A stretch of 58,812 bases of DNA from Candidatus Alloscybalousia sp. Lineage in GTDB: Bacteria > Bacillota_I > Bacilli_A > RF39 > UBA660. Positions 8,978-58,812 of the stretch are shown piece after piece. Location: contig JAZOBJ010000012.1 in assembly GCA_045595895.1 (NCBI GenBank), positions 1 through 58,812 of the forward strand, read 5' to 3'. The notes beneath the pieces were generated by a model, which ran no database searches, was not told where the DNA came from, and was given only the letters and a program-made list of their open reading frames with translations. A program made the translations under genes and the position numbers. The stretch's first letter is position 1; the number at the start of each line of letters is the position of its first letter.

Positions 8978-9025
8978 TTTTTTATTTATAAATTTTTATA
9001 TGATATAATATAATAGGTGATGTAA

Positions 9026-9455: not shown

Positions 9456-9477
9456 GGGGGAGAAAATCCCCCTTTTT
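9456..9477 (+). terminator. Orphan intrinsic terminator-like hairpin in a 270-nt intergenic region
   Basis: GGGGG-agaaaat-CCCCC is followed by TTTTT. It lies 170 nt after the nearest upstream stop and before the promoter of the next gene. Confidence 0.5.
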
Positions 9478-9557
9478 GCTACTTGCATTAATTAGTGATG
9501 TATGGTAATATGATTAAGTAATGAAAAATAAATAGAAATCACCGAGGTGTAGTATAA

Positions 9558-10064: not shown

Positions 10065-10110
10065 TTAGATTGTTTTTTCTTTAGTTTTTGATATAATTAA
10101 AAATGAAGTT

Positions 10111-10187
10111 GTTCTCGTAGCTCAGTAGGATAGAGCAATCGCCTCCTAAGCGATAGGTCGGAAGTTCGATTCTTCTCGGGAACACCA
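10111..10187 (+). tRNA. tRNA-Arg (anticodon CCU), CCA encoded
   Basis: Manual cloverleaf: acceptor GTTCTCG/CGGGAAC, D arm GCTC-AGTAGGATA-GAGC, anticodon arm ATCGC-CTCCTAA-GCGAT, T arm GGAAG-TTCGATT-CTTCT, then ACCA. Confidence 0.9.
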
Positions 10188-10198
10188 TTAAAAATAAA

Positions 10199-10226
10199 AG
10201 AACCTACAAAATATAGGTTCTTTTTT
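10199..10226. terminator. Bidirectional intrinsic terminator between tRNA-Arg and the convergent LtaS-like gene
   Basis: AGAACCTA-caaaatat-TAGGTTCT is flanked by A- and T-runs. Confidence 0.7.
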
Positions 10227-12167: not shown

Positions 12168-12263
12168 AACTACCAACTCCATATATTATTATTATATAAT
12201 ATTTTTAGAAAAATTAATCATAAATTTAAAGATATGATATAATAAACATGGAGTTGATAAATA

Positions 12264-21383: not shown

Positions 21384-21839
21384 ATGAAAAACAAAAAGGG
21401 ATTTACACTAATAGAATTATTGGGTGTAATAATTCTATTAGGTATTATAATAACAATAGCTGTAATCTCTTACTCATCTAGTTTGAATAAAACAAAAATA
21501 AAAGCATTTCAGTTAGAAGAAGGAAATTTTGTTGATGCAACAAAATCCGCTTATGTTGATTGTTTAGGTAATAATCCAACTAACAATTTCTGTGAATTGC
21601 ACCAACAGTTAGATGACAAAAATACATATGATTTTGTATATTTAAAAGAACTAATTGATGATAATTATATTGGGAAAATTAAAAATCCATATGATACAGA
21701 GCAGTTTTGTGATTTTGAAAATTCATATGTATATGTAAGTAGAAAAAATAGTAGTAACGCAAATAATGCAGATATTGTATATAAAGTATGTTTAATTTGT
21801 GGCGATAAAAAAAGTGAAAATTGTTTAAATGAAGATTAG
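21384..21839 (+). CDS. Type IV pilin / pseudopilin (prepilin-type N-terminal methylation motif)
   Basis: The leader is MKNKKG|FTLIELLGVIILLGII, with Glu at position +5. The C-terminus has four Cys including CLICGDKKSENC. A TTGACT-17-TATCAT promoter and an AGGTGA RBS lie upstream. Confidence 0.85.
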   Translation: MKNKKGFTLIELLGVIILLGIIITIAVISYSSSLNKTKIKAFQLEEGNFVDATKSAYVDCLGNNPTNNFCELHQQLDDKNTYDFVYLKELIDDNYIGKIKNPYDTEQFCDFENSYVYVSRKNSSNANNADIVYKVCLICGDKKSENCLNED

Positions 21840-32248: not shown

Positions 32249-33688
32249 ATGAATATCTTTATAGGAACTTATCATATAGTAAGAGATGTATTTCATTTTC
32301 CAGCTAAATTAATTGAACGTTTAAGAAATAATCAAATACAAAAAGAATTAGTGGAAGAAAAAGAAAATAGACAAAAACAATTATTACAAGAAACCATTGG
32401 AGCAATCTCAACAAATGATGATAAAACAGATCGTTTACTAAAACCAAAAGAAACAAATAAGAAAGATTTAATTACCTTTAATTATGAAGTTAAAAATGAC
32501 CTAGGAAAGGTTATAAAAAGCTCATTTGATGCTAAAAGTATTGATGAAGTAGAAGCTTTTTTAACTAACGAAGGTTATGAAATAATAAAAATTGAACCAA
32601 AGAAAAAATTTAGTTTAGATATGAATTTATCAATACTTCCAGTACGTTTTAAAAGTGGTGAATTAAGTTTTGCGTTAACACAATTGTCAACATATCTTAA
32701 GGCAGGAATTCCATTGATAGACTCTGTTCGTATTTTGGCTAAGCAAACACAAAATATAAGTAAGAAAAAAGTATATGAAAAAATAATTTATGATTTAGTA
32801 GCTGGTGAAAATTTTAGTACAGCTTTAGAAAATCAAAATGATATTTTTCCAAGACTTCTAATAAATATGGTAAAGGCTAGTGAAATGACAGGTGATTTAC
32901 CAACAATATTAGATGAAATGAGTGAATACTATACATCAATAGACCAAACAAAAAAACAAATGATTACAGCTTTAACATATCCATTAATCATATTTTTTGT
33001 TTCAATTATAGTAGTTTTCTTTTGTTTAATTTACATTGTACCTAGTTTCATAAAAATGTATGCTGAAACTGATACAGGATTACCTTCAATTACAGTTTTT
33101 ACTATAAATGCAAGTAAATTTTTATTAGCTCATTATATTCCAATAATTATAGGAATATTAGTCATTATAATAACATTCATTATGTTGTATCGTAACATTA
33201 AAGCATTTAGAAAGACAATACAAGTATTTTTAATGAAAATGCCTGTTATTAGTAAAATAATAATTTATAGTGAAGTAAGTATGTTTACAAGAACGTTTTC
33301 CCAATTGCTAAATCATAGTGTACATATTACAGATAGTATGATAATTTTATCAAAAATATCTAATAATGAAGTCTATAAAGAGATAATTATGAACACATTA
33401 GAAACACTAAGTAAGGGTGGAAAAATTTCTGAATCATTTAAAGGTCATTGGGCTTTTCCAATAGTTGCTTATGAAATGCTGGTAACTGGTGAATCAACTG
33501 GAAAACTCGGAGAAATGATGGGGAAGGTAGCGGATCATTATAATGACTTGCATAAAAATGCTATTACTAGCGTAAAAAGCTTAATAGAACCAATTACAAT
33601 TATTTTCTTAGCATTTACAGTAGGTTTTATTTTATTATCAATTATAATTCCAATGTTTGATATATATGGAGCAGTTGGAAGTATGTAG
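32249..33688 (+). CDS. pilC: Type IV pilus platform protein PilC (GspF family) with an N-terminal extension of about 75 aa
   Basis: Two GspF-type repeats are present (FALTQLSTYLKAGIPL... and FTRTFSQLLNHSVHI...) with three TM segments. The gene is followed by pilD. Confidence 0.85.
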   Translation: MNIFIGTYHIVRDVFHFPAKLIERLRNNQIQKELVEEKENRQKQLLQETIGAISTNDDKTDRLLKPKETNKKDLITFNYEVKNDLGKVIKSSFDAKSIDEVEAFLTNEGYEIIKIEPKKKFSLDMNLSILPVRFKSGELSFALTQLSTYLKAGIPLIDSVRILAKQTQNISKKKVYEKIIYDLVAGENFSTALENQNDIFPRLLINMVKASEMTGDLPTILDEMSEYYTSIDQTKKQMITALTYPLIIFFVSIIVVFFCLIYIVPSFIKMYAETDTGLPSITVFTINASKFLLAHYIPIIIGILVIIITFIMLYRNIKAFRKTIQVFLMKMPVISKIIIYSEVSMFTRTFSQLLNHSVHITDSMIILSKISNNEVYKEIIMNTLETLSKGGKISESFKGHWAFPIVAYEMLVTGESTGKLGEMMGKVADHYNDLHKNAITSVKSLIEPITIIFLAFTVGFILLSIIIPMFDIYGAVGSM

Positions 33689-33703
33689 TTAGGGGGACTT
33701 GCT

Positions 33704-34468
33704 ATGGACACACTTTATATTATAACTTTCTTTATATTAGGAACCATTCTTGGTTCCTTCTACCATGTAGCAGGGTATCGATTACCAAAAGGTGAATCTT
33801 TACTAAAACCTAGACATTCTTATTGTACAAATTGTGGTAAAAAATTAAAATGGTATGAATTAATTCCAATAATTTCATACGTAATTCAATTAGGAAAGTG
33901 TCGTAATTGTCATGAAAAAATATCGATTTTCTATCCGTTTATTGAGATAGTTACAGGTGCCTTGTTCGCAGTTAGTTTTTATTCGTTTGGATTTACATAT
34001 GAATTGATTGTTAGTCTTACCTTAGTGTCTTTATTTAGTATTGTGATTGTTAGTGATTTGAATTATATGATTATACCAGATGAAGTAACATTAATAGCAT
34101 CAATAATAATAATAGTAACCAATTTTTTAAACCTTGGATTAATAGATGGATTATTACAACTTGGTAGTGGTATTCTTACTTTTACAGTAATGTATTTAGT
34201 AATGTTACTTGGTAATTATATGTTTAAAAAAGAATCATTGGGCGGAGCTGATATTAAATTAATGTTCGTTGCAGGATTAGCTCTTCATCCAATATTAGGA
34301 ATCTTTGTTATATTTATTTCAAGTTGTATTGCATTGCCAATTTCAATATCAATATATGCAATAAATAAAGAACATATAATACCATTTGGACCATTTATAG
34401 TAGCAGCAATTTTGCTTTTATTTCTATTTAAGATAGATATAAATATGTTTACTAATATTTTTCTTTAA
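33704..34468 (+). CDS. pilD: Prepilin peptidase (A24 family) PilD
   Basis: It has the Zn-binding CTNCG...CRNC, the GGADIKL active-site region, and eight TM helices. Confidence 0.9.
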   Translation: MDTLYIITFFILGTILGSFYHVAGYRLPKGESLLKPRHSYCTNCGKKLKWYELIPIISYVIQLGKCRNCHEKISIFYPFIEIVTGALFAVSFYSFGFTYELIVSLTLVSLFSIVIVSDLNYMIIPDEVTLIASIIIIVTNFLNLGLIDGLLQLGSGILTFTVMYLVMLLGNYMFKKESLGGADIKLMFVAGLALHPILGIFVIFISSCIALPISISIYAINKEHIIPFGPFIVAAILLLFLFKIDINMFTNIFL

Positions 34469-34547
34469 AGATAAATAAAAATATTGAATTAAATTGACTT
34501 CATACCATAAAAAAGTTAAAATTATATATAAAGACAGTGGTGATAAT

Positions 34548-35177
34548 ATGAAAAAAAATAAACAGTTATTTTTAACAGTGACATTAGTCTTAGTTTTATT
34601 ATTAATAACAACAGGAGTTAGTGTTGCTTTTTTTAATTATGTAAAAGAAGGAACGACTGAAAATAGTATCAAACTAGGTACCATTACCTTTAAATATACT
34701 GAAAATAGCAACTTAGGTAATGGTATTATCATAAAAGATGCTTTTCCTATTAGTGATGAAGAAGGAAAAATTCAAATCGGTGAAGGAAAAGTATTTGATT
34801 TTACTATTGAGTCAACACTATCAAAAAGTGATTTAGAATATGAAGTAGTGGCAGAACCAACAGAAGAATCAAATCTATCACTTGATGCTATTAAATTTTA
34901 TTTAACGGATATAACTAGTGGAACTGAAGTAGAAATTGCCAATTCAATAAGTAATAATAGAGTTAAAACGTTAAATCAATATAGTGATACATTAATACCT
35001 AACGTAACAGGAAAAACAATTTATCAAGAAACAATAGTAAAAAATACTAAAGGATACCTAAAAAAATTTAGAGCTAGAATGTGGGTAACAGAAGGTCTAG
35101 ATTGGTCAGATGAAAATTACATGGGGAAATTGACAGCTATCAAGATAAATGTATATGCAAATAGTGAAGAAAAATAA
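34548..35177 (+). CDS. Signal-anchored beta-rich secreted protein, paralog of 39821..40357 (TasA/camelysin-like leader)
   Basis: The leader region is KKNKQLFLTVTLVLVLLLITTGVSVAFFNYVKEGT. Shared paralog motifs are IIKDAFPISDEEGK, FDFTIES and FRARMWV...GKLTAIKINVYA. The start is moved to ATG 34548. Confidence 0.5.
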   Translation: MKKNKQLFLTVTLVLVLLLITTGVSVAFFNYVKEGTTENSIKLGTITFKYTENSNLGNGIIIKDAFPISDEEGKIQIGEGKVFDFTIESTLSKSDLEYEVVAEPTEESNLSLDAIKFYLTDITSGTEVEIANSISNNRVKTLNQYSDTLIPNVTGKTIYQETIVKNTKGYLKKFRARMWVTEGLDWSDENYMGKLTAIKINVYANSEEK

Positions 35178-45330: not shown

Positions 45331-45344
45331 AAAATAATAAAAGA

Positions 45345-45376
45345 AAGAGTACTGCAGAAGCAGTACTCTTATTTTG
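45345..45376. terminator. Bidirectional terminator between thrS and the convergent ORF
   Basis: AAGAGTACTGC-agaa-GCAGTACTCTT has A/T-rich flanks. Confidence 0.7.
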
Positions 45377-45854
45377 TTTGTTGTTTTCTTTCTTCAATCA
45401 ATTTATCTAAATATTCATAATAATCTTTAATACGATAAAAACTATTTAAAATATTATAATCATCGTCAACATCAACTACATCGATAAAAGAAACATTATT
45501 GTTTTCAAAACTAATAAATTCATCTTTCTTATTTAATAAAAACTGTATTTGTGCATCAGTAATACTGCTTGGGGAAGCAATTGCAAAACTTGGTACATTA
45601 TCATTAGAATTATTAACTATAACTAAAATTCCGGCCTTAGCAAACACATCCAGCTGATTATGAAAATGGATACTATCACTAATAACATAGGGTACACCTA
45701 AATTTTGAAACCAATCAGTATCATAAACATACTCTCTAAAAGCCGAATCATGTTTAAAACTAGGATCATTATCATCACGAAGTTTAATGGGTGCCCATTT
45801 TCCAAAACTCATATAGTTACCATTTTGATCTACTATAATTCCTAATTCTTTCAT
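45369..45854 (-). CDS. Hypothetical protein (161 aa)
   Basis: The ORF has no TM helix and no motif I recognise. It is convergent with thrS and divergent from mraZ. Confidence 0.45.
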   Translation of the reverse strand: MKELGIIVDQNGNYMSFGKWAPIKLRDDNDPSFKHDSAFREYVYDTDWFQNLGVPYVISDSIHFHNQLDVFAKAGILVIVNNSNDNVPSFAIASPSSITDAQIQFLLNKKDEFISFENNNVSFIDVVDVDDDYNILNSFYRIKDYYEYLDKLIEERKQQTK

Positions 45855-46012
45855 ATTAACATCTTCTTTCTAACTACATAATATCATTTTAAAGGCATAA
45901 TAATATAGGTAAAAATTAAAATTTACACAAGTTTACATGTATATATGTAAAAAATAAATAAATTTTTATTTCTACTAGAATTTATATATAAAATAGTGTA
46001 TTATGATAATAA

Positions 46013-46039
46013 CGAGTGGTTAAAAGTGGTGAAAAGTGG
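46013..46039 (+). promoter_or_regulatory. Putative MraZ operator: three direct repeats with 10-bp phasing
   Basis: cGAGTGG (46013-19), AAAGTGG (46023-29) and AAAGTGG (46033-39) lie immediately upstream of the mraZ RBS. Confidence 0.55.
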
Positions 46040-46048
46040 GGGATATTT

Positions 46049-46492
46049 ATGTTCATGGGTGAATATCATCATTCCATTGATGAAAAAGGAAGAATAATAA
46101 TTCCTTCCAAATTTCGTAATGAACTTGGTGAATCTTTTGTAGTAACAAGAGGTATTGAAAATTGTTTATTTATTTATTCATTATCAGAATGGCAAAAGAT
46201 AGTTACCAAATTAAAATCACTACCATTTACCAAAAAAGATGCTCGTAATTTCACAAGGTTTTTCTTATCAGGTGCAACCACAGTCGAATTTGATAAACAA
46301 GGAAGAATTAACATTTCACAGCCACTTGCATCATATGCCAATCTAATAAAAGAATGTGTTGTTGTTGGTGTTAATGATCGTCTTGAAATATGGTCATTAG
46401 ATTCATGGAATAAGTTCTTCGATGATAATCAAGAAAACTTATCTGATATAGCTGAAAACTTATTTACAAATAATATAGACATTGATATATAG
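46049..46492 (+). CDS. mraZ: Division/cell wall cluster transcriptional regulator MraZ
   Basis: [23 protein letters not shown] is followed by a second SpoVT-AbrB repeat, [12 protein letters not shown]. The start is moved to ATG 46049. Confidence 0.93.
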
Positions 46493-46500
46493 GGGGATTT

Positions 46501-47424
46501 ATGCATATTAGTGTTTTATTAAAAGAATCTATTGATAGCCTAAATATTAAAGATGACGGTCTTTATGTAGACTGTACTTTAGGTTACGCTGGACATTCAA
46601 GTGAAATATTAAAAAGAATAAAAAAAGGACACCTTTTCGCCTTTGACCAAGATCAAGAAGCAATAAATGCTTCAAATGAAAAATTAAAAGCTATTGGAAG
46701 TAATTACACTATAATAAAAAGTAATTTCGTTAATCTAAAAGAAAAACTAGAAGAATTAGATGTTCATGAAGTAGATGGAATATTATTTGATTTAGGAGTA
46801 TCAAGCCCACAGTTAGATGATGACTATCGAGGATTTAGTTATCATAATGATGCTAGACTTGATATGAGAATGGATCGTGACAAAGATTTTTCTGCTTGGG
46901 ATATCGTAAACACTTATAGTGAAAAACAACTAGCTAGAATAATGTTTGAATATGGTGAAGAAAAATATTCTAATAGTATAGCTAGAAACATCGTAAAAGA
47001 AAGACAAATTAAACCAATAGATACAACATTTGAATTAGTTGAAATAATAAAAAAATCAATGCCAGAAAAGGCTAAACGTGATAAACATCCAGCTAGAAAA
47101 ACATTTCAAGCTCTAAGAATAGAAACTAATCATGAGTTAGAAATATTAGAATCTAGTATGAGAGATGCATTAAGTATGTTAAAAATAGGTGGAATCTTAT
47201 CTGTAATAACATTCCACTCATTAGAAGATAGAATAGTAAAAAATGTATTTAAAGAAGTAACTACTATAGATGATATGGTAAAAGGATTACCTAATATTCC
47301 AGAAGAATATTTACCAGATTATGAACTTGTTAATCATAAAGCTATCATTCCAAGTAGTCACGAATTAGAAATAAATAATAGGAGTCGTTCATCTAAATTA
47401 AGAGTTATAAAAAGAGTTAAATAA
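46501..47424 (+). CDS. rsmH: 16S rRNA (cytosine1402-N4)-methyltransferase RsmH
   Basis: Motifs HISVLLKE, VDCTLGYAGHS, DLGVSSPQLD and TFHSLEDRIVK are present. Confidence 0.95.
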   Translation: MHISVLLKESIDSLNIKDDGLYVDCTLGYAGHSSEILKRIKKGHLFAFDQDQEAINASNEKLKAIGSNYTIIKSNFVNLKEKLEELDVHEVDGILFDLGVSSPQLDDDYRGFSYHNDARLDMRMDRDKDFSAWDIVNTYSEKQLARIMFEYGEEKYSNSIARNIVKERQIKPIDTTFELVEIIKKSMPEKAKRDKHPARKTFQALRIETNHELEILESSMRDALSMLKIGGILSVITFHSLEDRIVKNVFKEVTTIDDMVKGLPNIPEEYLPDYELVNHKAIIPSSHELEINNRSRSSKLRVIKRVK

Positions 47425-47438
47425 AGGGAGAGATAAAT

Positions 47439-47744
47439 ATGAGAAAAGTAAAGAAAAGATTAAAAATGTCAAAGTTTGAAAAATTATTATATATATTTAC
47501 TTTTATACTAGTACTAGCTACTCCTTTTGCACTTGTTTTTTCTCAAGCTACTTTATCTGAAATCAACTTTAAAGTAGAAAAAGTAAAAAAACAAATCTCT
47601 ACTCAAGAAAAGAAAAATGAAAGTCTTACTATGAAAATAAACGAACTTGCATCTTTAGAAAAGATACAAGCAATTGCCAAAGAGCAAGGATTGAGTTATA
47701 ATAATAATAATATATTAAATATTATAGAAGATTTAAATAAATAA
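47439..47744 (+). CDS. ftsL: Cell division protein FtsL
   Basis: This is a 101-aa bitopic protein (TM helix plus coiled coil) in the conserved slot between rsmH and the PBP gene. Confidence 0.7.
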   Translation: MRKVKKRLKMSKFEKLLYIFTFILVLATPFALVFSQATLSEINFKVEKVKKQISTQEKKNESLTMKINELASLEKIQAIAKEQGLSYNNNNILNIIEDLNK

Positions 47745-47754
47745 GGTGATTTTA

Positions 47755-49872
47755 ATGAAACATAAAAAGAAGTCAAATAACCATAATGTAAAAGTAGCAA
47801 ACATTATGATTTTTGTGACTCTTTTTTTGTTTTTAATTTTAATAGCTAGAGCTGGTCAGTTATCTTTATCTAAAGAAGTTGATGGAATTAATTTAAAAAA
47901 GTTCGCTAGCAATAGAACAATTAAACATGAAACTATATTAGCTAAACGTGGAACTATTTATGATGTAAATGGTGAGGCATTAGCACAGAATGTTTATTCA
48001 TATACCTTAATAGCTTATTTATCAGAATCACGAGGTAAAGGAAATTATGTTGCTAATAAAGAAGAAACAGCAGAGAAACTATCAACTGTTATTAATATGA
48101 GTAAAGATAAGATATTGAGCTTATTAAATAAAAATGCCTACCAAACAGAATTTGGTATATCAGGTAAAGGATTAACAGAATTAAAAAAGGATAGTATTAA
48201 AGCACTTAACTTAGCAGGAATTGATTTTATAGAAGATCAAAAAAGATACTACCCTAAAGGAGATTTTTTATCTTATACACTCGGTTATGCTAAGATGAAT
48301 ACTGAAGGTAAGATAATAGGCGAAATGGGAATAGAATCATTATTCAATAACTCATTAACTGGTACTGATGGTTTTAAAGAGTATCAAAAAGATAGAAAAG
48401 GATATAAAATAGCTAATACAGAAGAAAAAATTCAACTAGCCGAAGACGGTAATGATATATATCTAACAATAGATTCCAATGTACAATTCTTTGTTGAACA
48501 AGCAATAGAAGAAGTAAGTGATAAATATAATTTTGATGAATTAAATATTATTGTAGCGGAAGCTAAAACTGGTAAAATATTAGGTATGGGATCAACAACA
48601 TCGTTTGATCCAAATATAAAAAATATTGAGAAATGGGAAGATCCTAATATTTCAGTAGCCTTTGAACCGGGGAGTACTATGAAAATATTCACCTATATGG
48701 CAGCATTAGAAACAGGTAAATATGATGGTACTAAAACATTTAAATCAGGTACATATACAACTACTGACGGTACAGTAATAGGTGATTCAAATAGAAAAGG
48801 ATGGGGTATAATTAGTTATGACCGAGGATTTGCATTATCAAGTAACGTCGGAGTAGTTAATATAATTAATGATTACCTAGATAAAAATTCCTTGATGGAT
48901 TACTATAAAAAACTAGGTTTTGGTTCTAAAACAGGGATAGAATTAAGTAAAGAAACGTCAGGTAAAATAAACTTTAAATACGAAACAGAAGTTTATAATG
49001 CCGGATTTGGTCAAGGTATTATGGTAACAGGAATGCAAAATATTAAAGCTTTAACCTCAATTGCTAATGACGGTATATTATTAGAACCATACATCGTTGA
49101 TAAAATAGTTGATAGTGAAGGAAATATAATTGAGGAAAATTCAAGAACAGAATTGGGAAGAGTAGCAAGTAAAGAAACTACAGATAAGATTAAAGATTTA
49201 ATGGAAACAGTTGTTACTAATGGAACTGGTAGTAATTATAATATGCCAGGATATGGATTGATTGCTAAAACAGGTACAGCACAGATAGCTAGTACTAATG
49301 GAACAGGATATTTAACAGGAAAATATGATTACATTCGTGGATTTTCTGGAATGTTTCCAAAAGATGACCCTGAAATAATTATATATGCCAACGTTAAAAG
49401 ACCAAGACCAAATACAGCTAACAGTTTATCATACGTTGTTGAAAGTGTTGTAGAAAATATAAGTAAATACTATAACATTTATGATGAAACACAGACAAAT
49501 ATTGAAAAAACTTCTTATACTTTAGAAAACTACATAAATAAAGACCTGGAAAAAGTTAAAAATAAATTAGAAGAAAATAGTATTTGTGTTGAAGTAATAG
49601 GAGATGGAGACAAAATTATTAGTCAGTATCCTGGTAAAGATATAAAGCTAACCAAAGGAAGTAAAGTTTTCTTAAAGACTAATAGTAGTAATATAAAAAT
49701 TCCAAACTTCAAAGGATGGAGTAAGAAAGATGTACTTACATATTTAAATCAGGCTAATATTTTATATACAACAGAAGGTAATGGATATCTAGTTAGTCAA
49801 AGTATAACAGATGCTTTATATGATGGTAACACAATAATTGAATTGAAGTTTAAAGAAAAATATAATGAGTAA
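47755..49872 (+). CDS. pbpB: Penicillin-binding protein 2B-type class B transpeptidase with two PASTA domains
   Basis: A TM anchor is followed by PGSTMKIF (SxxK), SSN and KTGTA, then two C-terminal PASTA-like repeats. The start is moved to ATG 47755, behind AGGTGA. Confidence 0.9.
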   Translation: MKHKKKSNNHNVKVANIMIFVTLFLFLILIARAGQLSLSKEVDGINLKKFASNRTIKHETILAKRGTIYDVNGEALAQNVYSYTLIAYLSESRGKGNYVANKEETAEKLSTVINMSKDKILSLLNKNAYQTEFGISGKGLTELKKDSIKALNLAGIDFIEDQKRYYPKGDFLSYTLGYAKMNTEGKIIGEMGIESLFNNSLTGTDGFKEYQKDRKGYKIANTEEKIQLAEDGNDIYLTIDSNVQFFVEQAIEEVSDKYNFDELNIIVAEAKTGKILGMGSTTSFDPNIKNIEKWEDPNISVAFEPGSTMKIFTYMAALETGKYDGTKTFKSGTYTTTDGTVIGDSNRKGWGIISYDRGFALSSNVGVVNIINDYLDKNSLMDYYKKLGFGSKTGIELSKETSGKINFKYETEVYNAGFGQGIMVTGMQNIKALTSIANDGILLEPYIVDKIVDSEGNIIEENSRTELGRVASKETTDKIKDLMETVVTNGTGSNYNMPGYGLIAKTGTAQIASTNGTGYLTGKYDYIRGFSGMFPKDDPEIIIYANVKRPRPNTANSLSYVVESVVENISKYYNIYDETQTNIEKTSYTLENYINKDLEKVKNKLEENSICVEVIGDGDKIISQYPGKDIKLTKGSKVFLKTNSSNIKIPNFKGWSKKDVLTYLNQANILYTTEGNGYLVSQSITDALYDGNTIIELKFKEKYNE

Positions 49873-49952
49873 AAAAGAAATTGAATATTCAATTTCTTTT
49901 TTGTATAAAACAATTAAAATCATCCCAATATAAAACTGAAGGAGATGAAAAT

Positions 49953-50213
49953 ATGGATACAATACCACAAATTATTTCAACAAAAGATTTAGCATACTTA
50001 TCAGATATGTTTGAATGGAATAAAACAGCATTCAAACAAGTAAATCATTTTATTAATGAGGTACAAAATGAAGAAATTAAAGAATTATTAGAAAGAATAA
50101 AAAATATGCATGAAGATCATATGAACTTTATCATTTCAATTTTAAAAAAAGAAGAATATGATGAAAATGAATATGAAGAAGAATATTCTGAGGAGGAAAA
50201 TGAAGATGAATAA
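49953..50213 (+). CDS. Small helical protein with an acidic tail, probable spore-coat-associated partner of the CotF-like gene
   Basis: The RBS is AAGGAGATG. The product is 86 aa and ends EEYDENEYEEEYSEEENEDE. The gene overlaps the next gene by 8 nt. Confidence 0.4.
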   Translation: MDTIPQIISTKDLAYLSDMFEWNKTAFKQVNHFINEVQNEEIKELLERIKNMHEDHMNFIISILKKEEYDENEYEEEYSEEENEDE

Positions 50214-50532
50214 TAACGAAATTAAAAATCCTAAAACAGAAGTTCCTACTGGAATTGAAATGAATGATCGTGACTACTTAAATGTAGTATTAGAACTAGA
50301 AAAAAATATGTCGAACAACTATTCAATTGCTTTAAATGAAGCAAGTAATGATTATTTGTATGAAGATTTCTTTACTCTTCTAGAAGATGGTAAAGATGCA
50401 GCAAGGGAATTATATAACTTAATGTTTCAAAATGGTTGGTATACTTTAGAACAAGCAGAAGAACAAAAAGTAAATCAAAAAATTAACTGTTTTACACAAG
50501 AATTAACAGAATTGGGAATAGAAACTGAATAA
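50206..50532 (+). CDS. Spore coat protein F-like (Coat_F domain)
   Basis: DRDYLNVVLELEKNMSNNYSIALNEASNDYLYEDF...NGWY is present, and AGGAGG lies 9 nt upstream. Confidence 0.7.
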   Translation: MNNNEIKNPKTEVPTGIEMNDRDYLNVVLELEKNMSNNYSIALNEASNDYLYEDFFTLLEDGKDAARELYNLMFQNGWYTLEQAEEQKVNQKINCFTQELTELGIETE

Positions 50533-50582
50533 GTTTCTTTTTTTATGGAAATTTTGGTATAATACTATATTGGAGGGATAAC

Positions 50583-51479
50583 ATGTTAAAAGTAGAAAAC
50601 ATCACTAAATACTATGGTAACAATTTAGCTGTAGATAATTTGTCATTCGAAGTAAAAAATGGTGAAATATTTGGATTGCTTGGTTCAAATGGTGCCGGTA
50701 AAACAACAACATTTAGAATTATAATGGGACTATTAGATAGTAATAATGGAACAGTAACACTGGATGGCAAAAAAATAGATTACAGTCTAACAGATAAAAT
50801 TGGTTTTGTAACTGAAGAAAGAAGTTTATTAACTAAAATGACAGTTAAGGAACAAATAATTTACTATGGGAGATTAAAAGGATTAACAGAGGAAGAAATT
50901 CTCAAGAAACTAGATATATGGTTAGAAAAATTCCAAATAACAGACTATAAAAATAGAAAGATTAAAGAATTATCAAAAGGTAACCAACAAAAAATTCAAT
51001 TTATTGCAGCTGTTATTAATGAACCTAAACTATTAATTTTAGATGAACCATTTACTGGACTTGACCCAATAAATGTAGGACAGCTAAAAGAAGCGATTTA
51101 TGAGCTTCAGAAAAAAGGATGCTCAATCATCTTTTCATCACATCAAATGGAACATATAGAACAGTTCTGTGAAAAGTTAGTAATATTAGTAAAAGGAAAA
51201 CCAGTTATTGAAGGATATTTAAAAAAGATCAAAGAAGACTATCAAAAGAAAAATATTCTAATTCGTGGTGATATAGAAGTAGATAATATCTTATCTATTA
51301 AGGGAGTAATAGAAGTTAATAAAAAGATTGATGAATATGAAGTGAAAATTGAAAGTAATGAAATAGTAGAAAAAGTATTCAAAAAAATATCTAAAAACAA
51401 AATCACTAAGTTTATAGTTGAAGAACCTAGTTTAAATGAAATCTTTATAGCGAAAGTAGGTGGTAACTATGATGAATAA
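50583..51479 (+). CDS. ABC transporter ATP-binding protein (ABC-2/NatA-like)
   Basis: It has Walker A GSNGAGKTT, the signature LSKGNQQK and Walker B LLILDEP. Confidence 0.9.
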   Translation: MLKVENITKYYGNNLAVDNLSFEVKNGEIFGLLGSNGAGKTTTFRIIMGLLDSNNGTVTLDGKKIDYSLTDKIGFVTEERSLLTKMTVKEQIIYYGRLKGLTEEEILKKLDIWLEKFQITDYKNRKIKELSKGNQQKIQFIAAVINEPKLLILDEPFTGLDPINVGQLKEAIYELQKKGCSIIFSSHQMEHIEQFCEKLVILVKGKPVIEGYLKKIKEDYQKKNILIRGDIEVDNILSIKGVIEVNKKIDEYEVKIESNEIVEKVFKKISKNKITKFIVEEPSLNEIFIAKVGGNYDE

Positions 51480-52785
51480 GTTTTGGTTTTTAACAGGGAG
51501 TAGCTTAAAGAAAAAACTAAAAAGTAAATGGTTTTGGGTAGTAAATATACTATTATTAGTGGTAATAGTTGGTATAGTAAACATTGATAGTATTATTAAA
51601 ACTTTTGGTGGTGATTTTACTGAAGCTAATGAAATATTAGTTATAGATAAAACTGGATATTCTTATAATATTTTCAAAAGAAATTTAAACACCCTAAACG
51701 ACACATTAGATATGGAGTATACTTTCGAACTTACTAATGAAACTAGGGACCAAGAAGTAGTTGAAAGTGAAATAGTTGATACAGATAAAACCTTAATAAT
51801 CTTAGAAAATAGTGAAGATTCATATATAAAAGCAAGTGTAATTAGTGATAATTATATAGATACAATGTATTATCAACTTTTATATCAGACACTTACTAAT
51901 ACAAAAGCAGAAATAGCACTATCACTAACAGATATAGATCCAGAAGAGCTGTTAAAGGTAACTAGTGCTATAACAGTTGATAGAATCTTATTAAGCGAAG
52001 ATAAGAATACTGAAGAAGAAAATATGGAAATGATTATGGGAACCGTTTTTCCGACCGTTATACTACCATTCTTTATTTTAGTTGTATACCTAGTTCAAAT
52101 GATTGGTGCAGAAATAAATGAAGAAAAACAAACACGCAGTATGGAAGTAATTATTTCAAATGTTAGTCCAAAGGTTCATTTCTTTTCTAAACTAATAGCA
52201 AGTAATGCTTTTGTTTTACTTCAAGGAGCTTTATTAATTTTATATTCTATAACTGCTCTAGTAATTAGAAACTATATAGCAGTGGATAGTGCATCAAGTA
52301 TTACAGCTGAAATTGGCAATATATGGAACAGTTTGGTAACAAGTGGCTTTGTTGATAAATTAGCATATATCATTCCACTTACACTAATTCTAATGATTCT
52401 ATCATTTATAACATATTCATTAGTTGCTGGTATTTTAGCATCAATGACAGTTAGTATGGAAGATTTCCAACAGATTCAAACACCAATTATGATGATATGT
52501 TTAGCAGGATATTATTTAGCTATAATGGCTGGTATGTTTGAAGGAAGTATTTTTATCAAAACATTATCTTATATTCCATTCCTTTCATGTTTATTATCAC
52601 CAGCTCTATTGGTAATAGGTCAGATTGGTATAGTTGATGTAATTATTTCAATAATTGTTTTATTAATATTTAATTTTATTCTAATTAAATATGGATTAAA
52701 AATATATAAAATAGGTATCCTTAATTACTCAACTGATAAAATGTGGAGTAAATTATTTAAAGCAGTGAAGTCTAAAGAAATTTAG
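51469..52785 (+). CDS. ABC-2 family permease (NatB/YhaP-like) with a large first extracytoplasmic loop
   Basis: TM1 is followed by a loop of about 170 aa and then five TM helices. It is translationally coupled to the ATPase gene. The start is moved to ATG 51469. Confidence 0.75.
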   Translation: MMNKFWFLTGSSLKKKLKSKWFWVVNILLLVVIVGIVNIDSIIKTFGGDFTEANEILVIDKTGYSYNIFKRNLNTLNDTLDMEYTFELTNETRDQEVVESEIVDTDKTLIILENSEDSYIKASVISDNYIDTMYYQLLYQTLTNTKAEIALSLTDIDPEELLKVTSAITVDRILLSEDKNTEEENMEMIMGTVFPTVILPFFILVVYLVQMIGAEINEEKQTRSMEVIISNVSPKVHFFSKLIASNAFVLLQGALLILYSITALVIRNYIAVDSASSITAEIGNIWNSLVTSGFVDKLAYIIPLTLILMILSFITYSLVAGILASMTVSMEDFQQIQTPIMMICLAGYYLAIMAGMFEGSIFIKTLSYIPFLSCLLSPALLVIGQIGIVDVIISIIVLLIFNFILIKYGLKIYKIGILNYSTDKMWSKLFKAVKSKEI

Positions 52786-52799
52786 ACTTCTTTTTTTTT
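52767..52799 (+). terminator. Intrinsic terminator after the ABC-2 operon
   Basis: GAAGTCTAAA-gaaa-TTTAGACTTC is followed by a T-run of 9. Confidence 0.75.
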
Positions 52800-52840
52800 A
52801 TTTTTGTGGTATAATATTATATACTTTTTGGGGGTAGTAT

Positions 52841-53707
52841 ATGGAAAAAACAAATTTGTTAAATGAACTATTAAATAAAATAAATTATTTTGAAAATATT
52901 TCACTAGAAGATTTTTGCCTTTTAAATAGTTTAGAAACATATGAACTAGGAGAATTTAATGATAAAGTATCACAGGTAACACCATTACTAAATCAAATAT
53001 GTAGCTATGTCTTAACTGGTAGAATAATAAATGATATAGCGCTAGAATATATTAGTGATGTTGTTGATGAGAAAAAGTACGAAACATGTATGTCCATATG
53101 TAAAAAATGTGATGAATATATAGAAATTTTAATTAACGAAGGATGTAAACACCCAAGTGTTACTAATGTTATAAACTGCGTTAATGGTTCTTATTTCTAT
53201 GAACAATTTTATGATTATTTATCAACGTTTATAATTGATGCAGAAAACCCAACTAAACAAATATTAACAGAATTAATGTATGATGCAGATGAAATTATTC
53301 AAAGAATGTATGATAATCTTTTAGAAAATCTACATACTGTTTTAAAAAATAATAAAAACCTAACGACAGAACAGTTATTGAGAGTTTTAAATAGTTATAG
53401 TAAAAGTAGTGTATCACTATGCATTATCGCACCATATAACGTAATGACTTATAACTATGATAATAATGAAAATTATGTTAGTTATTTTAATGGAAAAAAT
53501 AATTATACATTAAATCAAATATTTATTAATTCGTTATCATCACTGGCTAATATTATTGGAATTATTGAAGAATATGAAAATGAAGATTCAAAAAGCCTAA
53601 TTGAAGATATGAAAGAATGTTACTCAATATACCAAACCTATAAATATAAATACTATAAAGATATTAATAAAGAAAGAAAATTATTAGAAAAATGTAAGAA
53701 AATGTAA
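52841..53707 (+). CDS. Hypothetical helical protein (288 aa)
   Basis: An extended -10 element TGTGGTATAAT and the RBS GGGGGTAG lie upstream. I recognise no motif. Confidence 0.45.
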   Translation: MEKTNLLNELLNKINYFENISLEDFCLLNSLETYELGEFNDKVSQVTPLLNQICSYVLTGRIINDIALEYISDVVDEKKYETCMSICKKCDEYIEILINEGCKHPSVTNVINCVNGSYFYEQFYDYLSTFIIDAENPTKQILTELMYDADEIIQRMYDNLLENLHTVLKNNKNLTTEQLLRVLNSYSKSSVSLCIIAPYNVMTYNYDNNENYVSYFNGKNNYTLNQIFINSLSSLANIIGIIEEYENEDSKSLIEDMKECYSIYQTYKYKYYKDINKERKLLEKCKKM

Positions 53708-53782
53708 ATATTTATGAAAAAGTGAGATATTCTCACTTTTAATTTGTATAATATTAATAGTTCCCAAAAAAGGAGGGGTATA

Positions 53783-56074
53783 ATGTTAGAATTAAAAAAG
53801 ATAAATAAAAGTTATAAAACGGGTAGTTTTACCCAACGTGCTTTAAAAGATGTTTCAATTGAATTTAGAAAGAACGAATTTGTAGCAATCTTAGGTGCAA
53901 GTGGTTCAGGTAAAACAACATTGCTTAATATTATTGGTGGATTAGATCAATATGACAGTGGTGATTTAATAATTAATAATAAATCAACTAAAAAGTTTAA
54001 AGATATTGACTGGGACCGTTATCGTAATAATTGTATTGGTTTTATTTTCCAAAATTATAATTTAATACCACACATTACTATTTTAGATAATATTGAAATG
54101 GGTATGACTTTAAGTGGAGTAAGTAGTAAAACTAGAAAAAGAAAAGCCAAAGATGCATTGAAAAAAGTAGGTTTATTAGAACATGCTCATAAAAAACCAA
54201 ATCAACTATCAGGTGGCCAAATGCAAAGAGTAGCGATTGCCCGTGCTTTAGTAAATGATCCAGATATAATCTTAGCAGATGAACCAACAGGAGCATTAGA
54301 TACTAAAACAAGTATTCAAATAATGAACCTAATTAAAGAAATAGCTAAAGATAAATTAGTAATCATGGTAACACATAACCCAGAAATAGCTAATGAATAT
54401 GCAAATAGAATTATTGAATTCAGAGATGGTGAAAAAATAAGTGATTCTAATCCAGTTGAAGAAGAAAATAAAGATAGTTCGACACTAAAAATCAGAAAAA
54501 CAGCTATGAGTTTTATGACAGCCTTAAAACTATCATTTAATAATATCAAAACAAAAAAAGGAAGAACCTTAATTACCGCTTTTGCATCTAGTATTGGTAT
54601 TATTGGAATCGCACTAATTTTATCTCTATCTAATGGTTTCAAGATTGAAGTTGATAATTTTGAAAAAACATCACTGTCTCAAATGCCAATATTGATTAGT
54701 ACCCAAGCCATGAGTGAACAGGGTATGATAGAAATTTCATATGATGATAATACATTAGAAAAATATCCAACAGAAAACAAAATATATATTCAAGATGATA
54801 TAGTAGAAACAATATTACATACTAATATCATTACAAATGAATATTTAGAATATTTAAAAGGAATAGATAAAAAACTATTATCAGGTGTAGCATATCAAGG
54901 AACAACTGGTTTTAATATTATAAATCACACACAAAATGGATATAACCTTGTTACTTCCACAAATATGTGGTCTTTACTACCAACTAATCCTAACGAAGGT
55001 GAAAATGGCATCTTAGAGGATAATTATGATGTCTTAGCAGGGAAAATTAACGAACATGAACCAGGATTAATTCTTCAAGTAAATAGTAAAAATCAAATAT
55101 TTAAATCAACTTTAGAGACACTAGGATTAGCTGGTGAAGAAATATCATTTGAAGAAATCTTAAATCAAGAGTTAAAAGTAGTGATGAACGATGATTACTA
55201 TATCCAATACGGGGAAGCTTTTATTCCTAGCCAAGATTTAGAAAGTCTATACAAGAATAAAAATAGTATAACTTTAAAAGTGCAAGCAATCATTCGTGGC
55301 AAAGAAGGTAAAGAAACAGTAACTTCTGGTAGTGGTCTTGCATATACAAATGCATTAACTGAATTAGTAATATCTAAAAATAAAGATTCTAAAATAGTCA
55401 AAGCTCAGATGGAAAAAAATTATAATATTTTAACAAATAAACCATTTGAAGAAGGAATTAATAGTACTAATACTAAAGAAATAATCCTAGGTTACCTAGG
55501 CGCAGAAACAATACCAACTGTAATTTATTTATACCCAAAAGATTTTGAATCTAAAGAAATAATTACGGATTACTTAGATAAATATAATGAAACTAAAGAA
55601 GAAGCTGAAGTGATTAATTATACTGATATGGCAGCTATGATATCTGGATTATCAGGTGGAATCATGGATGCAATTACTGTTGTGTTAGTAGCATTTTCTT
55701 CAATTTCACTAATAGTATCTAGCATTATGATAGCTATTATTACTTATATTTCCGTATTAGAAAGAATTAAAGAAATAGGAATTCTAAGGGCATTAGGTGC
55801 AAGAAAAAAAGACATTAAACGTGTATTCAATGCTGAAACATTTATAATAGGTCTAACATCTGGTATTTTAGGAATATTAATAGCTTATCTATTAACTATC
55901 CCAACTAATCAAATTATTGAATCTATATCAGGGCTTCCTAATGTAGCCAAATTAAATATAATACATGCAATAATTTTAATTGTGATAAATGTTGTCTTAA
56001 CCATGATAGGTGGAACTATTCCAGCAAGAATGGCAAGCAAAAAAGATCCAGTTGAGGCATTAAGAACTGAATAA
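53783..56074 (+). CDS. Fused ABC ATPase-FtsX permease (MacB-like single polypeptide)
   Basis: It has Walker [10 protein letters not shown], the signature LSGGQMQR and Walker [13 protein letters not shown]. These are followed by a TM helix, an extracytoplasmic domain of about 340 aa and a C-terminal FtsX three-TM bundle. The start is moved to ATG 53783, behind AGGAGGGG. Confidence 0.88.
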
Positions 56075-56083
56075 GTTATCTAA

Positions 56084-56114
56084 AAAGATATTTCAACATG
56101 AAATATCTTTTTTC
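56084..56114 (+). terminator. Intrinsic terminator after the fused ABC gene
   Basis: AAAGATATTTC-aacat-GAAATATCTTT is followed by TTTT. Confidence 0.7.
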
Positions 56115-56188
56115 TTCTTATAATTGCTTTACATATACTAAAAAAAAATGTAAAATTAGAATAGTAAGATATGAAAATAGGTGATGTT

Positions 56189-58812
56189 ATGAAAAGTAAA
56201 AAAGGTTTTACGCTAATAGAACTATTGGCAGTTGTTTTAATACTAGGAATAATCTTATTGATTGCTATTCCATCAATAATTAAATATTTAAATAAAGGAA
56301 CAAATACATATTATGCTAACCTTGAAGATAACATCATTCTAGCAGGAAGAGATTATTTAAATGATTACCGTACTTTATATCCTAAAGAAATAGGTAACGT
56401 AACAGTAATTGAATTAAGTGAATTAGTAAACAATAGATACCTTGAAGAAGTTACTGATACTAATGGAAAAACCTGTGAAGGAAAAATGATTGCAAAAAAG
56501 ATAGCTAAGAATAATTATGAATATTATAGTTGTCTAATATGTGAAGAATATAAAACAAAAGGAACAAATTGTGAATACAGTGAGGATAATAATATTACAG
56601 CAGAAACTAAAAATTACAAAGTCGAGATTGAACAAATAAGTTATACGATAAATCAAGGTGAAAAATTTGACTTACCTAAAGCTAAAGCATATTATTTAGG
56701 ACAATTAGTCGATAGTAACGTAATAGGAAGTCCTAAAATAATAGATACTAACAAATTAGGTACTACAACAGTAACTTATGCATATAAAGGTGCAAAGAAG
56801 ACTATAACAGTAACTGTTGTTGATAATGTAAAACCAAGTATGCCACAAGTTGCATTAAGAAATGATAATGCTAGTGGTAATAAATATAATGGTAATTGGT
56901 ATAGTGGTAATATTTATGTAGAATTAAAGGCAACAGATTATACCAAAAATAATTTAGTAGGTAGTGGTATATCTTATTATGAAATAAGTAAAGATGAAGA
57001 AAATTGGCAAAAGCTAACCGGAAATACAACTACAATAAGTGATTTAGGAGATACAACTTATTACGTTAGAAGTATAGATAAAGCTGGAAATATTAGTGAA
57101 AATAATACATTTAATGTAAAGATAGATAAGGAAACTTTTGAATGCGTAATAGAAGCATCAGGAACAAAAGGGAAAAATGATTGGTACACAAGTGATGTTG
57201 AACTACAGGTTAAGGCACTTAATGAACCAACAAGTGGAATTTCAGCTAAAGGTTTAAATAAAACAAATGTAACTACTAATACAACAGGAGATACAATAAT
57301 AGGAACAATAACAAGTGGAAGTGGTAAAATAGCAACATGTACTAAGACAATAAAAGTAGATAAAGCTACACTATCTAAACCAACAATAAAAGCTTCTGAT
57401 AATATAACATCAGGAAATTGGCATAATGATAATGTAACGTTAACAGCAAGTGGAGTGTCATCAACAAGTGGAATTACTTATTATATGGATACAAACACTA
57501 ACCCTGTAACATCAACATCTTCAGTAACAGCTTCAAATAATACTACGTCAACAGGAATTAATTACTATGCCAAAGCATGTAATGGTGCAGGAACATGCAG
57601 CCAAGTAAATAATTATTTATTAAAAATAGATAAGTCAACTCCAAGTTGTACAATAGTAGCATCAGGAACGGAAGGAAATAATGGTTGGTACATAAGTGAC
57701 GTAACACTTAGTCTTGATATTACAGAAACACCAAGTTCAATTTCCCAACAAAATATAAGCGCTAATAAGATAACCACAAATACAACAGGTCAAACTGTAA
57801 CAGGAACAATAACAAGTGGTGCTGGTGCGGTAGCGACATGTAGTAAGATAGTAAGAGTAGATAAAGAACAGCCAACAACCCCAGTAATAAAACTTGACAA
57901 ATCTATAAGTTCAACTACTATAACAGCAAGCTTAGATACATTATCAACAGCAACAAGTAGTATTGATTATTATGAATATTGGGCAGGTTTAGGTACGCCA
58001 GACAATCGATATACAACTAATGTAACTGGAACAACAAAAACTGGTGATGTAACACTAACTAGTGATGATAATAAAGATGCTTATGGAAATATTCATTATA
58101 GAGCAGTTTCAAAATCTGGATTAATAAGTGACTGGAGCAACGGCCCAACATATACAATAGATAAAGTAAAACCAACGCTAAGATCAGTTACCGGAACAGG
58201 CCCAACAGTTACAGAAAATAAAGAAATAACAGTTGAATATTCATCAACAATAACTGGTGAACCAACAGTTTGTTACTATGTCTCAGATACAACAACACTA
58301 TCATCAAATGTAGAACCAATTGAATGTGTAAAAGGTATGCCAGTAAAATTTAATGTAGAAACAATTGGTACCTATATATTCTTCCGTGCTACAAACGGTG
58401 CAGGATTAAGTAGTGATATAACTGAAGCATATCCACTATATGTTAGTAAAAATGTATGTGAGTATGAAATTGGACATACATGGACATTTGATTACAACGG
58501 AAATCCTGAAGAATTCATTGTACCATGTGATGGAACATATAAACTAGAAGTATGGGGTGCCCAAGGTGGAACTTATCAAACTAATACAGGTGGACTTGGT
58601 GGATATTCATATGGTAATAAAGTTTTAAGAGAAGAAACACCACTATATGTCGTAGTCGGTGGACAAGGTGGTACAACTGGAACCGCAGGATATAATGGTG
58701 GAGGTACTGGAACTGATGGAAATATCAAAATAGCTGGTGGTGGTGGTGCTACCCATATGGCATTAGCTGGTGATGTACTTAAGAATGTCGATGTTTCTAA
58801 ATTATTAATTGT
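56189..58812 (+). CDS. Giant modular type IV pilin-like protein (at least 874 codons, 3' end beyond the window)
   Basis: An AGGTGATG RBS precedes the leader MKSKKG|FTLIELLAVVLILGII. I translated the frame by hand to the window end and found no stop. The first roughly 130 aa are paralogous to the 21384 pilin (YYSCLICEEYKTKGTNC versus YKVCLICGDKKSENC). Ig-like modules and a Gly-rich module follow. The ORF is not in the supplied track. Confidence 0.8.
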   Translation, partial: MKSKKGFTLIELLAVVLILGIILLIAIPSIIKYLNKGTNTYYANLEDNIILAGRDYLNDYRTLYPKEIGNVTVIELSELVNNRYLEEVTDTNGKTCEGKMIAKKIAKNNYEYYSCLICEEYKTKGTNCEYSEDNNITAETKNYKVEIEQISYTINQGEKFDLPKAKAYYLGQLVDSNVIGSPKIIDTNKLGTTTVTYAYKGAKKTITVTVVDNVKPSMPQVALRNDNASGNKYNGNWYSGNIYVELKATDYTKNNLVGSGISYYEISKDEENWQKLTGNTTTISDLGDTTYYVRSIDKAGNISENNTFNVKIDKETFECVIEASGTKGKNDWYTSDVELQVKALNEPTSGISAKGLNKTNVTTNTTGDTIIGTITSGSGKIATCTKTIKVDKATLSKPTIKASDNITSGNWHNDNVTLTASGVSSTSGITYYMDTNTNPVTSTSSVTASNNTTSTGINYYAKACNGAGTCSQVNNYLLKIDKSTPSCTIVASGTEGNNGWYISDVTLSLDITETPSSISQQNISANKITTNTTGQTVTGTITSGAGAVATCSKIVRVDKEQPTTPVIKLDKSISSTTITASLDTLSTATSSIDYYEYWAGLGTPDNRYTTNVTGTTKTGDVTLTSDDNKDAYGNIHYRAVSKSGLISDWSNGPTYTIDKVKPTLRSVTGTGPTVTENKEITVEYSSTITGEPTVCYYVSDTTTLSSNVEPIECVKGMPVKFNVETIGTYIFFRATNGAGLSSDITEAYPLYVSKNVCEYEIGHTWTFDYNGNPEEFIVPCDGTYKLEVWGAQGGTYQTNTGGLGGYSYGNKVLREETPLYVVVGGQGGTTGTAGYNGGGTGTDGNIKIAGGGGATHMALAGDVLKNVDVSKLLI
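57122..57366 (+). repeat. Intragenic repeat A (about 82 aa, Cys-bracketed module) of the giant pilin
   Basis: IDKETFECVIEASGTKGKNDWYTSDVELQV...TTNTTGDTIIGTITSGSGKIATCTKTIKVDKA. Confidence 0.8.
57626..57870 (+). repeat. Intragenic repeat B (about 82 aa, Cys-bracketed module) of the giant pilin
   Basis: IDKSTPSCTIVASGTEGNNGWYISDVTLSL...TTNTTGQTVTGTITSGAGAVATCSKIVRVDKE. It lies 504 nt downstream of repeat A and is roughly 50-55% identical to it at the protein level by eye. Confidence 0.8.

Follow-up and report, generated by a model that had tools for sequence, protein, structure and literature searches.

A giant modular pilin with an Ig-like stalk and an ALK/LTK-type glycine-rich domain in Candidatus Alloscybalousia sp.

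Contig JAZOBJ010000012.1 of Candidatus Alloscybalousia sp. (NCBI GenBank assembly GCA_045595895.1) ends inside a gene for a giant modular type IV pilin, and the stretch analysed, called the window here, is this entire 58,812-nt contig. Translation of the window gave a frame that runs from ATG 56189 to base 58812, 874 codons with no stop, in agreement with a first-pass annotation that had described a stopless open reading frame (ORF) of at least 874 codons from the letters alone. That annotation had also put the gene's absence from the ORF lists down to the want of a stop codon, and it was right to do so: the pilin frame ends at the contig end, and the gene is missing from the lists because its frame runs off the window. 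The complete protein has ~1134 residues and consists of a pilin head, seven immunoglobulin (Ig)-like domains, a glycine-rich domain (GRD) of the ALK/LTK type and a Cys-rich tail. The features of the locus, and the pilus genes found elsewhere in the window, are given in Table 1.

Table 1. Features of the giant pilin locus and pilus genes in the window (coordinates in nt; pLDDT, predicted local distance difference test score; AF2, AlphaFold2).
Feature	Coordinates	Strand	Remarks
151-aa pilin	21384..21839	+	paralogue of the giant pilin head; candidate partner or major pilin
PilC/GspF-family platform protein	32249..33688	+	two T2SSF domains, E=1.9e-53
PilD-type prepilin peptidase	33704..34468	+	A24_N_bact E=2.8e-31 and Peptidase_A24 E=3e-13
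Promoter-like site TTTACA-17 nt-TAAAAT	56128..56156	+	10/12 positions agree; consensus match only
Shine-Dalgarno sequence AGGTGA	56179..56184	+	4 nt before ATG 56189
Class III (prepilin) leader MKSKKG	56189..56206	+	predicted PilD cleavage after Gly6
Pilin module	56207..56593	+	AF2 helix alpha1 (~9-59), then small beta-sheet, conserved C...CLxC...C
Ig-like domain 1 (Big_3-like)	56606..56827	+	PF07523 22.1 bits (cutoff 21.2); AF2 pLDDT 81-88
Ig-like domain 2 (OmpL47-type beta-sandwich)	56828..57124	+	NF047446 34.1 bits, under cutoff 40
Cys-bracketed Ig-like repeat, copy 1	57122..57367	+	Cys319...Cys384
Intervening Ig-like domain	57368..57625	+	Cys464-Cys470 loop; AF2 beta-sandwich, pLDDT 80-93
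Cys-bracketed Ig-like repeat, copy 2	57626..57871	+	Cys487...Cys551
Two more beta-rich domains	57872..58450	+	AF2 low confidence, pLDDT 40-74
ALK/LTK-type GRD, N-terminal part	58451..58812	+	PF12810; cut by contig end

The rest of the gene was found in other assemblies. A protein of 1132 aa (P0001) is identical to the window ORF product along the entire query, and its residue numbers plus 2 give those of the window protein. Alignment of its contig (L001) with the window is ungapped across 2622 nt (99.7%), with eight dispersed mismatches, of which three fall around the start codon. In L001 the pilin gene ends with a stop codon and a hairpin that resembles a terminator. Two upstream neighbour proteins gave no match when looked up by exact sequence, and a second related sequence (L087) was reached through the neighbour MraW (P0127). 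L087 belongs to a 309,761-nt contig of ERZ25021399, from a different sample, and is collinear with window positions 43561-57423 (13.9 kb, 98.8%), a span that takes in the intergenic region upstream of the pilin gene. The gene call on L087 has 1140 residues with both PF07963 and PF12810. Since it begins at an in-frame alternative start, ATG 56171, which gives a 12-residue leader, the full length from ATG 56189 is 1134 residues. The true 3′ end, which lay beyond the reach of the first-pass annotation, is therefore supplied by two independent assemblies (L001 and L087) that complete the gene at ~1134 aa.

Head, stalk and GRD agree without gaps in three independent assemblies. A more distant metagenome-assembled genome (MAG), L083 (GCA_947589515.1, CANQBE010000004.1), is syntenic with the window from 46.5 to 58.8 kb, where it keeps the order MraW-FtsL-PBP2B...CoatF-ABC-ABC2-MacB-like and then has a 1269-aa pilin at the corresponding place, and an 82-aa minus-strand gene comes after the pilin in both L083 and L001. 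Because head and repeats are contiguous in L001 and L087 and L083 is syntenic, an assembly join or frameshift between the two, a risk raised at first pass, is excluded. A broader version of the same concern is that the gene is an artefact, created by an assembly join, by frameshifts in a pseudogene or by the in silico fusion of a pilin start with a mobile or phage-derived insert. It could draw on the window ending within the ORF, on the GC content of the gene (31.7% against 25.8% in the remainder of the window) and on L001 1-125, which is unrelated to the corresponding window positions 56066-56190 upstream of the start. On the other side stand the gap-free assemblies, the gene order of the related MAG, a GC content at third codon positions (GC3) of 12%, which is like that of the neighbouring genes, and 171 relatives with the same prepilin-plus-stalk layout. 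We regard an artefact as extremely improbable, and the independent assemblies, L083 synteny and GC3 effectively refute it.

Since GC3 is like that of neighbouring genes, the higher GC of the pilin gene is attributed, on composition, to its Gly and Thr codons, and recent horizontal transfer of the gene, which the GC content had suggested, was rejected on the same grounds. The 125-nt stretch of L001 is GC-richer and belongs to a low-coverage contig with a 99.7% identical coding part; either a different genomic setting or a chimeric end of the assembly may account for it. The upstream sequence in L087, unlike that in L001, agrees with the window.

The protein opens with MKSKKG followed by FTLIELLAVVLILGII, with Glu at +5. 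This had been called a textbook class III signal, and the N-terminus indeed scores above the curated cutoffs of both PF07963 (29.2 bits, cutoff 21.2) and TIGR02532 (29.1, cutoff 16.3). Further into the head, the NCBIfam PilA model NF041775 aligns with residues 4-125. AF2 modelling of the head alone gave a pLDDT of 89.3 and a predicted template modelling score (pTM) of 0.72, with a predicted 51-residue helix (9-59) and 3-4 strands (71-75, 97-106, 109-118). In type IV pilins with the 'lollipop' fold, a beta-sheet packs on an extended alpha1 of ~50 residues. When a profile of 25 heads was searched against PDB, the best 21 matches were all pilins or pseudopilins, with E-values down to 7e-14. These matches included geopilin (7e-14), Streptococcus sanguinis PilE1, Myxococcus xanthus PilA, PAK pilin and GspG, and gonococcal PilE aligned to the profile across residues 1-86. 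A phmmer search of the whole protein against PDB sequences returned pilin N-terminal helices only, and no ALK. The profile searches set residues 1-130, where a pilin fold had been expected, among the type IV pilins.

Only two prepilin motifs are present in the window, one in the giant pilin and the other in the 151-aa pilin at 21384. The first-pass annotation had considered the two paralogous, and this was upheld: the pairwise match is genuine, if modest (33% over 99 aa, E=1e-4), and in a 25-sequence alignment (A4) the small pilin lines up with the head over its full extent and both have the invariant positions L79, C96, Y112 and C118 together with the CLxC motif. In the same alignment E11 (Glu5) is invariant and G6 (Gly-1) nearly so. 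Competence pilins were considered and rejected, as the ComGC, ComGD, ComGE and ComGF models match the N-terminal 30-40 residues only, with scores far under their cutoffs.

The head ends at ~135, and the AF2 model of P0001 (50-sequence alignment) has seven beta-sandwich domains after it, domains 1-5 with pLDDT ~90 and the last two weak. The Ig-like modules recognized at first pass are thus present as AF2 beta-sandwiches, with Big_3 just over its threshold and the OmpL47-type match under its cutoff. Domain 2 has the motif GNWYSGNIY...YYVRSIDKAGN and a pLDDT of mostly ~90, with one block at 74. Two 82-aa Cys-bracketed repeats had also been reported (57122-57366 and 57626-57870), and these are in frame and 50% identical (E=7e-21) by direct pairwise comparison, although self-BLAST of P0001 listed no internal repeats. 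In Foldseek the stalk matches chains of Ig-like domains, among them GhpA, the grappling hook of Aureispira (E=1.5e-16, template modelling (TM)-score 0.15-0.2); this is a generic likeness between such chains. Elsewhere in the window (23365-24891), a 508-aa protein combines three Bact_surface_Ig-like domains with a polysaccharide deacetylase domain.

The glycine-rich end had been compared with PF12810, and the comparison was confirmed above cutoff. PF12810 matches the partial ORF of the window with E=9.4e-16 (59 bits) and full-length P0001 with E=3.1e-24 (86.7 bits, cutoff 24.5), the latter over profile positions 7-242 of 243. The domain lies at ~755-1000 of P0001, where AF2 pLDDT is partly >90. 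A Foldseek search with it returned the ALK/LTK structures 7n00, 7nx4, 7lrz, 7mzy and 7nx0 (E=1e-8 to 1e-7, 18-22% identity) at target TM-scores of 0.37-0.44, the model being only partly confident there. Solved GRDs combine a TNF-like sandwich with glycine-rich helices. In the family alignment of the GRD, 42 of the 75 conserved columns are Gly, and the conserved motifs are GAxGG, YNGGG, GGGATH, LIVAGGGGG, GGGxYGG, GGSGYI and GxAxITL; variation falls in indel-rich loops between the conserved Gly motifs, which take up 179 of 434 alignment columns.

Past the window end, the GRD is followed by the Cys-rich tail (P0001 1003-1132, L001 3130-3528), 130 aa with 14 Cys that match no Pfam family and have an AF2 pLDDT <30. 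The motif at its end, ...SCTK.EN.Y..Y.C..G......C-x-[F/Y], recurs behind various distal modules in 20 of 171 prepilin-bearing relatives, and going by this recurrence the tail C-terminus may be an undescribed conserved C-terminal cap.

Relatives of the giant pilin are numerous, with 165 from a word-indexed search and, from an exhaustive one, 10,040 with an E-value limit of 1e-3 and 277 when the limit was 1e-30. Family counts given here come from 244 sampled relatives in which a prepilin motif was sought in the first 40 residues. It was present in 171 of them (median length ~760-880 aa), and the survey of relatives proposed at first pass thereby yielded 171 proteins with the prepilin-plus-stalk layout. 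At least 1000 aa is reached by 65 of the 171, the longest has 1702 aa, and 28 also have GRD motifs. Using the head profile to search contigs gave at least 80 loci; those listed all had ordinary pilin N-termini (generic KGFTLIE), with no true family member among them.

Two related contigs show where these proteins differ from each other. In L002 (GCA_947631295.1, CANRKU010000005.1), three tandem pilin-GRD paralogues of 1067, 1023 and 1009 aa lie at 2768-13030 among housekeeping genes. Their proteins are 96-100% identical through the first ~500 residues and 0-50% in the GRD. At the DNA level identity is 95-99% from ~20 nt upstream of the ATG to ~1.7 kb, with sharp divergence beyond. From the alignments, the carrier looks to have been duplicated or subject to gene conversion, and the GRD to have diversified. 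The 1269-aa pilin of L083 (10001-13810) has a conserved head and stalk (56% over residues 2-488), and its distal part is made of Ig_7 and other modules with no GRD. With Ig_7 and others in place of the GRD, the distal module differs between orthologous positions.

Other combinations were seen around the same modules. Thrombospondin type-1 signatures (PF00090, PF19028, PF19030) or a WSxCSxxCG-like motif occur in P0012, P0018, P0027 and P0026, and in these giant pilins they replace the GRD or come beside it. The same GRD is also found in non-pilin giants of ~7000 aa, up to 7235 aa (P0132, P0138, P0155, P0167 and P0173, from a representative library), and the GRD proteins P0175, P0182 and P0184 have a pilin-like KKGF leader without Glu5. 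In one metagenomic context of the 659-aa pilin P0052 (L086 1-4870), a relaxase, a sortase and a serine recombinase lie upstream, adjoining a truncated ValS, which suggests that a mobile element inserted beside the locus.

In the published literature, more than 1,200 modular pilins with 264 architectures have been catalogued, the largest cited having 860 aa (Raynaud et al. 2021, PMC8179133). A modular pilin is defined there as an N-terminal IPR012902 motif joined to one or more domains without a specific link to pilus biology (PMC8179133); the giant pilin has PF07963, PF07523 and PF12810 in a single uninterrupted ORF. Dataset S1 of that study lists the IPR012902-PF12810 architecture for 2 proteins plus 1 with three PF12810 hits, and a second dataset has one PF12810-bearing PilY1 (PMC8179133). 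The first-pass annotation had seen an extreme case in the length of this pilin. This does not hold given the 65 of 171 prepilin-bearing relatives with at least 1000 aa, or given that pilins of the modular type occur widely and the domain pair is already listed (PMC8179133). The giant pilin instead falls within a large class of modular pilins that has been catalogued but is uncharacterised. The Dataset S1 entries share with it the pairing of prepilin N-methylation motif and ALK/LTK GRD; unlike the present family they are catalogued only, and stalk, size, variability and genomic context are not described there. Our literature search found no paper on giant GRD pilins or on any bacterial GRD pilin.

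The closest known systems include other minor pilins. In S. sanguinis, the minor pilins PilB (pilin and von Willebrand factor A (vWA) domain) and PilC (pilin and lectin) are proposed tip adhesins (PMC8179133). Like the giant pilin they pair a class III signal with a small pilin module that carries a non-pilus module, and both organisms are monoderm. They differ in being bimodular with a short linker, whereas the giant pilin has seven Ig-like spacers, a GRD and a Cys-rich tail. The TcpB-type tip minor pilin of Vibrio cholerae also has a pilin with beta domains and is a tip adaptor or adhesin. Likewise, CofB of enterotoxigenic Escherichia coli joins a pilin module to beta-repeat and beta-sandwich domains and is displayed at the pilus tip, again as adaptor or adhesin (PMC8179133). 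Both CofB and TcpB are type IVb, belong to diderms, have two extra domains and form trimers, and no sequence relationship to them was found here.

The GRD itself also has matches among phages. Five PHROG families match it with E-values down to 1.9e-31, stronger than Pfam, and have no annotated function. Foldseek also matched it with phage structure models auto-named after the ALK/LTK domain (26-29% identity). In the Clostridioides difficile phage phiCDHM19, gp32 has PF12810 (E=1e-52) and lies after a baseplate wedge gene, two tail proteins and a tail fiber, and before XkdX, holin and endolysin. A tblastn search of phage genomes with the GRD gave none at the default E-value, presumably due to low-complexity masking, and C. 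difficile phage proteins at E up to 1. The GRDs of Pam3 gp24 and S16 gp38 have been described as receptor-binding tips with conserved Gly motifs, a hypervariable distal end and an ALK-like structure (PMC9608196). The phage domains of Salmonella S16 gp38, cyanophage Pam3 gp24 and phiCDHM19 gp32 resemble the pilin GRD in their glycine-rich lattice and conserved Gly motifs, but are virion components, whereas in the present protein a pilin carrier has been joined to the domain; Pam3 gp24 is in addition trimeric and has a chaperone (PMC9608196). Similarly, the extracellular GRD of ALK/LTK (7lrz, 7n00, 7nx0, 7mzy) shares the full-length PF12810 match and is a ligand-binding region according to the PDB titles. 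ALK and LTK are metazoan receptor kinases that bind ALKAL cytokines, however, and the loops that separate the Gly motifs in the bacterial domain bear no relation to theirs and vary greatly.

By analogy with these systems, we propose that the giant pilin is a PilD-processed minor pilin that is held at a filament tip by alpha1, with the Ig-like domains as a spacer, the GRD as the binding end, and head and stalk as a constant carrier; we put the probability of this at roughly 0.6. PilD would cleave after Gly6, and the protein would then be docked by alpha1 into a type IV filament composed for the most part of a small pilin. The bulk of the protein suggests a location at the tip, which has been proposed for modular pilins in other organisms too (PMC8179133). 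The stalk, which we estimate at ~25-30 nm from ~4 nm per domain, would carry the GRD past the Gram-positive wall. There the GRD would serve as the ligand-binding end, its Gly motifs forming a constant scaffold and its loops setting specificity, as may be compared with phage tail-fibre GRDs and ALK. Across the family, head and stalk would remain the constant carrier while the distal module is diversified or swapped.

Assembly of such a filament would depend on pilus machinery, and PilC at 32249 and PilD at 33704, both named at first pass, were confirmed by T2SSF and A24 profiles. PilC is long (479 aa) and falls under every NCBIfam equivalog cutoff; ComGB was rejected at 139 bits against a cutoff of 240, GspF/PilC being the better fit. 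The two genes form an isolated unit (32249-34468) with no adjoining ATPase or pilin, and the next ORF after PilD (34494-35177) gave no family match.

Several observations weigh against a tip pilin. A scan of ORFs of at least 80 aa, which left out a few short or overlapping ones, found no PilB/PilT (T2SSE-type) ATPase and no PilM/N/O in the 58.8-kb window. The giant pilin gene stands alone, 22 kb from PilC and PilD, and the genes of its relatives are likewise surrounded by housekeeping genes, with none for pili close by. This orphan position differs from that of the S. sanguinis modular pilins, which are encoded in the pil locus and have been characterised experimentally. The extreme distal element is the poorly modelled Cys-rich tail and not the GRD. 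The phage GRD proteins are without annotated function and the GRD of gp32 is N-terminal, so that the binding role of the GRD rests on analogy. Finally, Foldseek with the head alone against PDB gave nothing significant (best E ~1). This last result is treated as a limitation of the method and no evidence against a pilin fold, because the head has a long single helix and most solved pilins are truncated constructs without it.

Part of the same evidence would also suit a surface protein that is only anchored in the membrane by its prepilin N-terminus, processed or unprocessed, with the stalk spanning the peptidoglycan, the GRD and tail displayed, and no polymerisation. An orphan gene with its own promoter-like site, relatives that are likewise orphans and the lack of an assembly ATPase in the window would all fit such an anchor, as would a seven-domain stalk whose length, by our estimate, roughly equals the thickness of a Gram-positive wall. 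The KGF leaders without Glu5 in P0175, P0182 and P0184 hint that leaders of this kind can act as plain anchors. A simple anchor would have no need, though, for the conserved Gly-1 and Glu5 or for a folded head whose Cys and Tyr positions are conserved; the same genome encodes a bona fide small pilin that is a paralogue of the head, and PilC and PilD are present. We therefore consider membrane anchoring without polymerisation unlikely.

The region upstream of the pilin gene was examined as well. An A9 run at 56140-56148, the sole one on the + strand of the window, sits in the spacer of the promoter-like site and is unchanged in L087; it could act as a slipped-strand switch. Cyclic di-GMP riboswitches occur upstream of clostridial pilin genes. 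Rfam gave no riboswitch or other RNA element near this pilin gene, and two tRNAs elsewhere in the window. The window also has DNA-uptake channel genes at 3995-6881, ComEA (SLBB and HHH_3) and ComEC (Competence and Lactamase_B). The organism is a spore former (GerA/B/C and CoatF in the window) with 26% GC, and the closest of the relatives retrieved carry the labels uncultured Bacilli or Bacillales gut MAGs.

If the GRD is displayed on a pilus, it may still have no host or abiotic receptor and be used for inter-bacterial recognition, for capture of prey, flagella or phage, or in a purely structural role. Arrays of constant carriers with divergent tips are associated with polymorphic recognition systems, and the tandem paralogues of L002 have this form. 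The stalk's likeness to GhpA and the GRDs in the non-pilin giants point the same way. The GhpA match is generic at its low TM-score, however, and no data here identify a class of ligand. We judge a role of this kind to be quite improbable.

A further and rather doubtful idea is that giant pilins are the pilus-borne counterpart of phage tail fibres, in which a constant carrier of pilin head and Ig-like stalk presents a GRD like those of phage tail modules, and that this GRD is diversified by duplication and recombination and exchanged with phages. The loops or the whole distal module would be varied via tandem duplication and recombination at a fixed boundary. If this were true, uncultured gut Bacilli would gain a repertoire of pilus-tip specificities.

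Modular pilins have been proposed as one answer to an open question, the wide functional range of simple type IV filaments. The modular pilins studied so far are few, short and bimodular, and the giant GRD family is much larger in scale. What is new here is the loop variation of the GRD, the tandem paralogues with a constant carrier, the different distal module at an orthologous locus and the sharing of a domain with phage tail modules. Given its abundance in uncultured gut Firmicutes, the family could be one of the chief factors that decide their attachment. Furthermore, the giant GRD pilin offers a bacterial system in which to study a domain that is familiar chiefly from an oncogenic receptor of humans.

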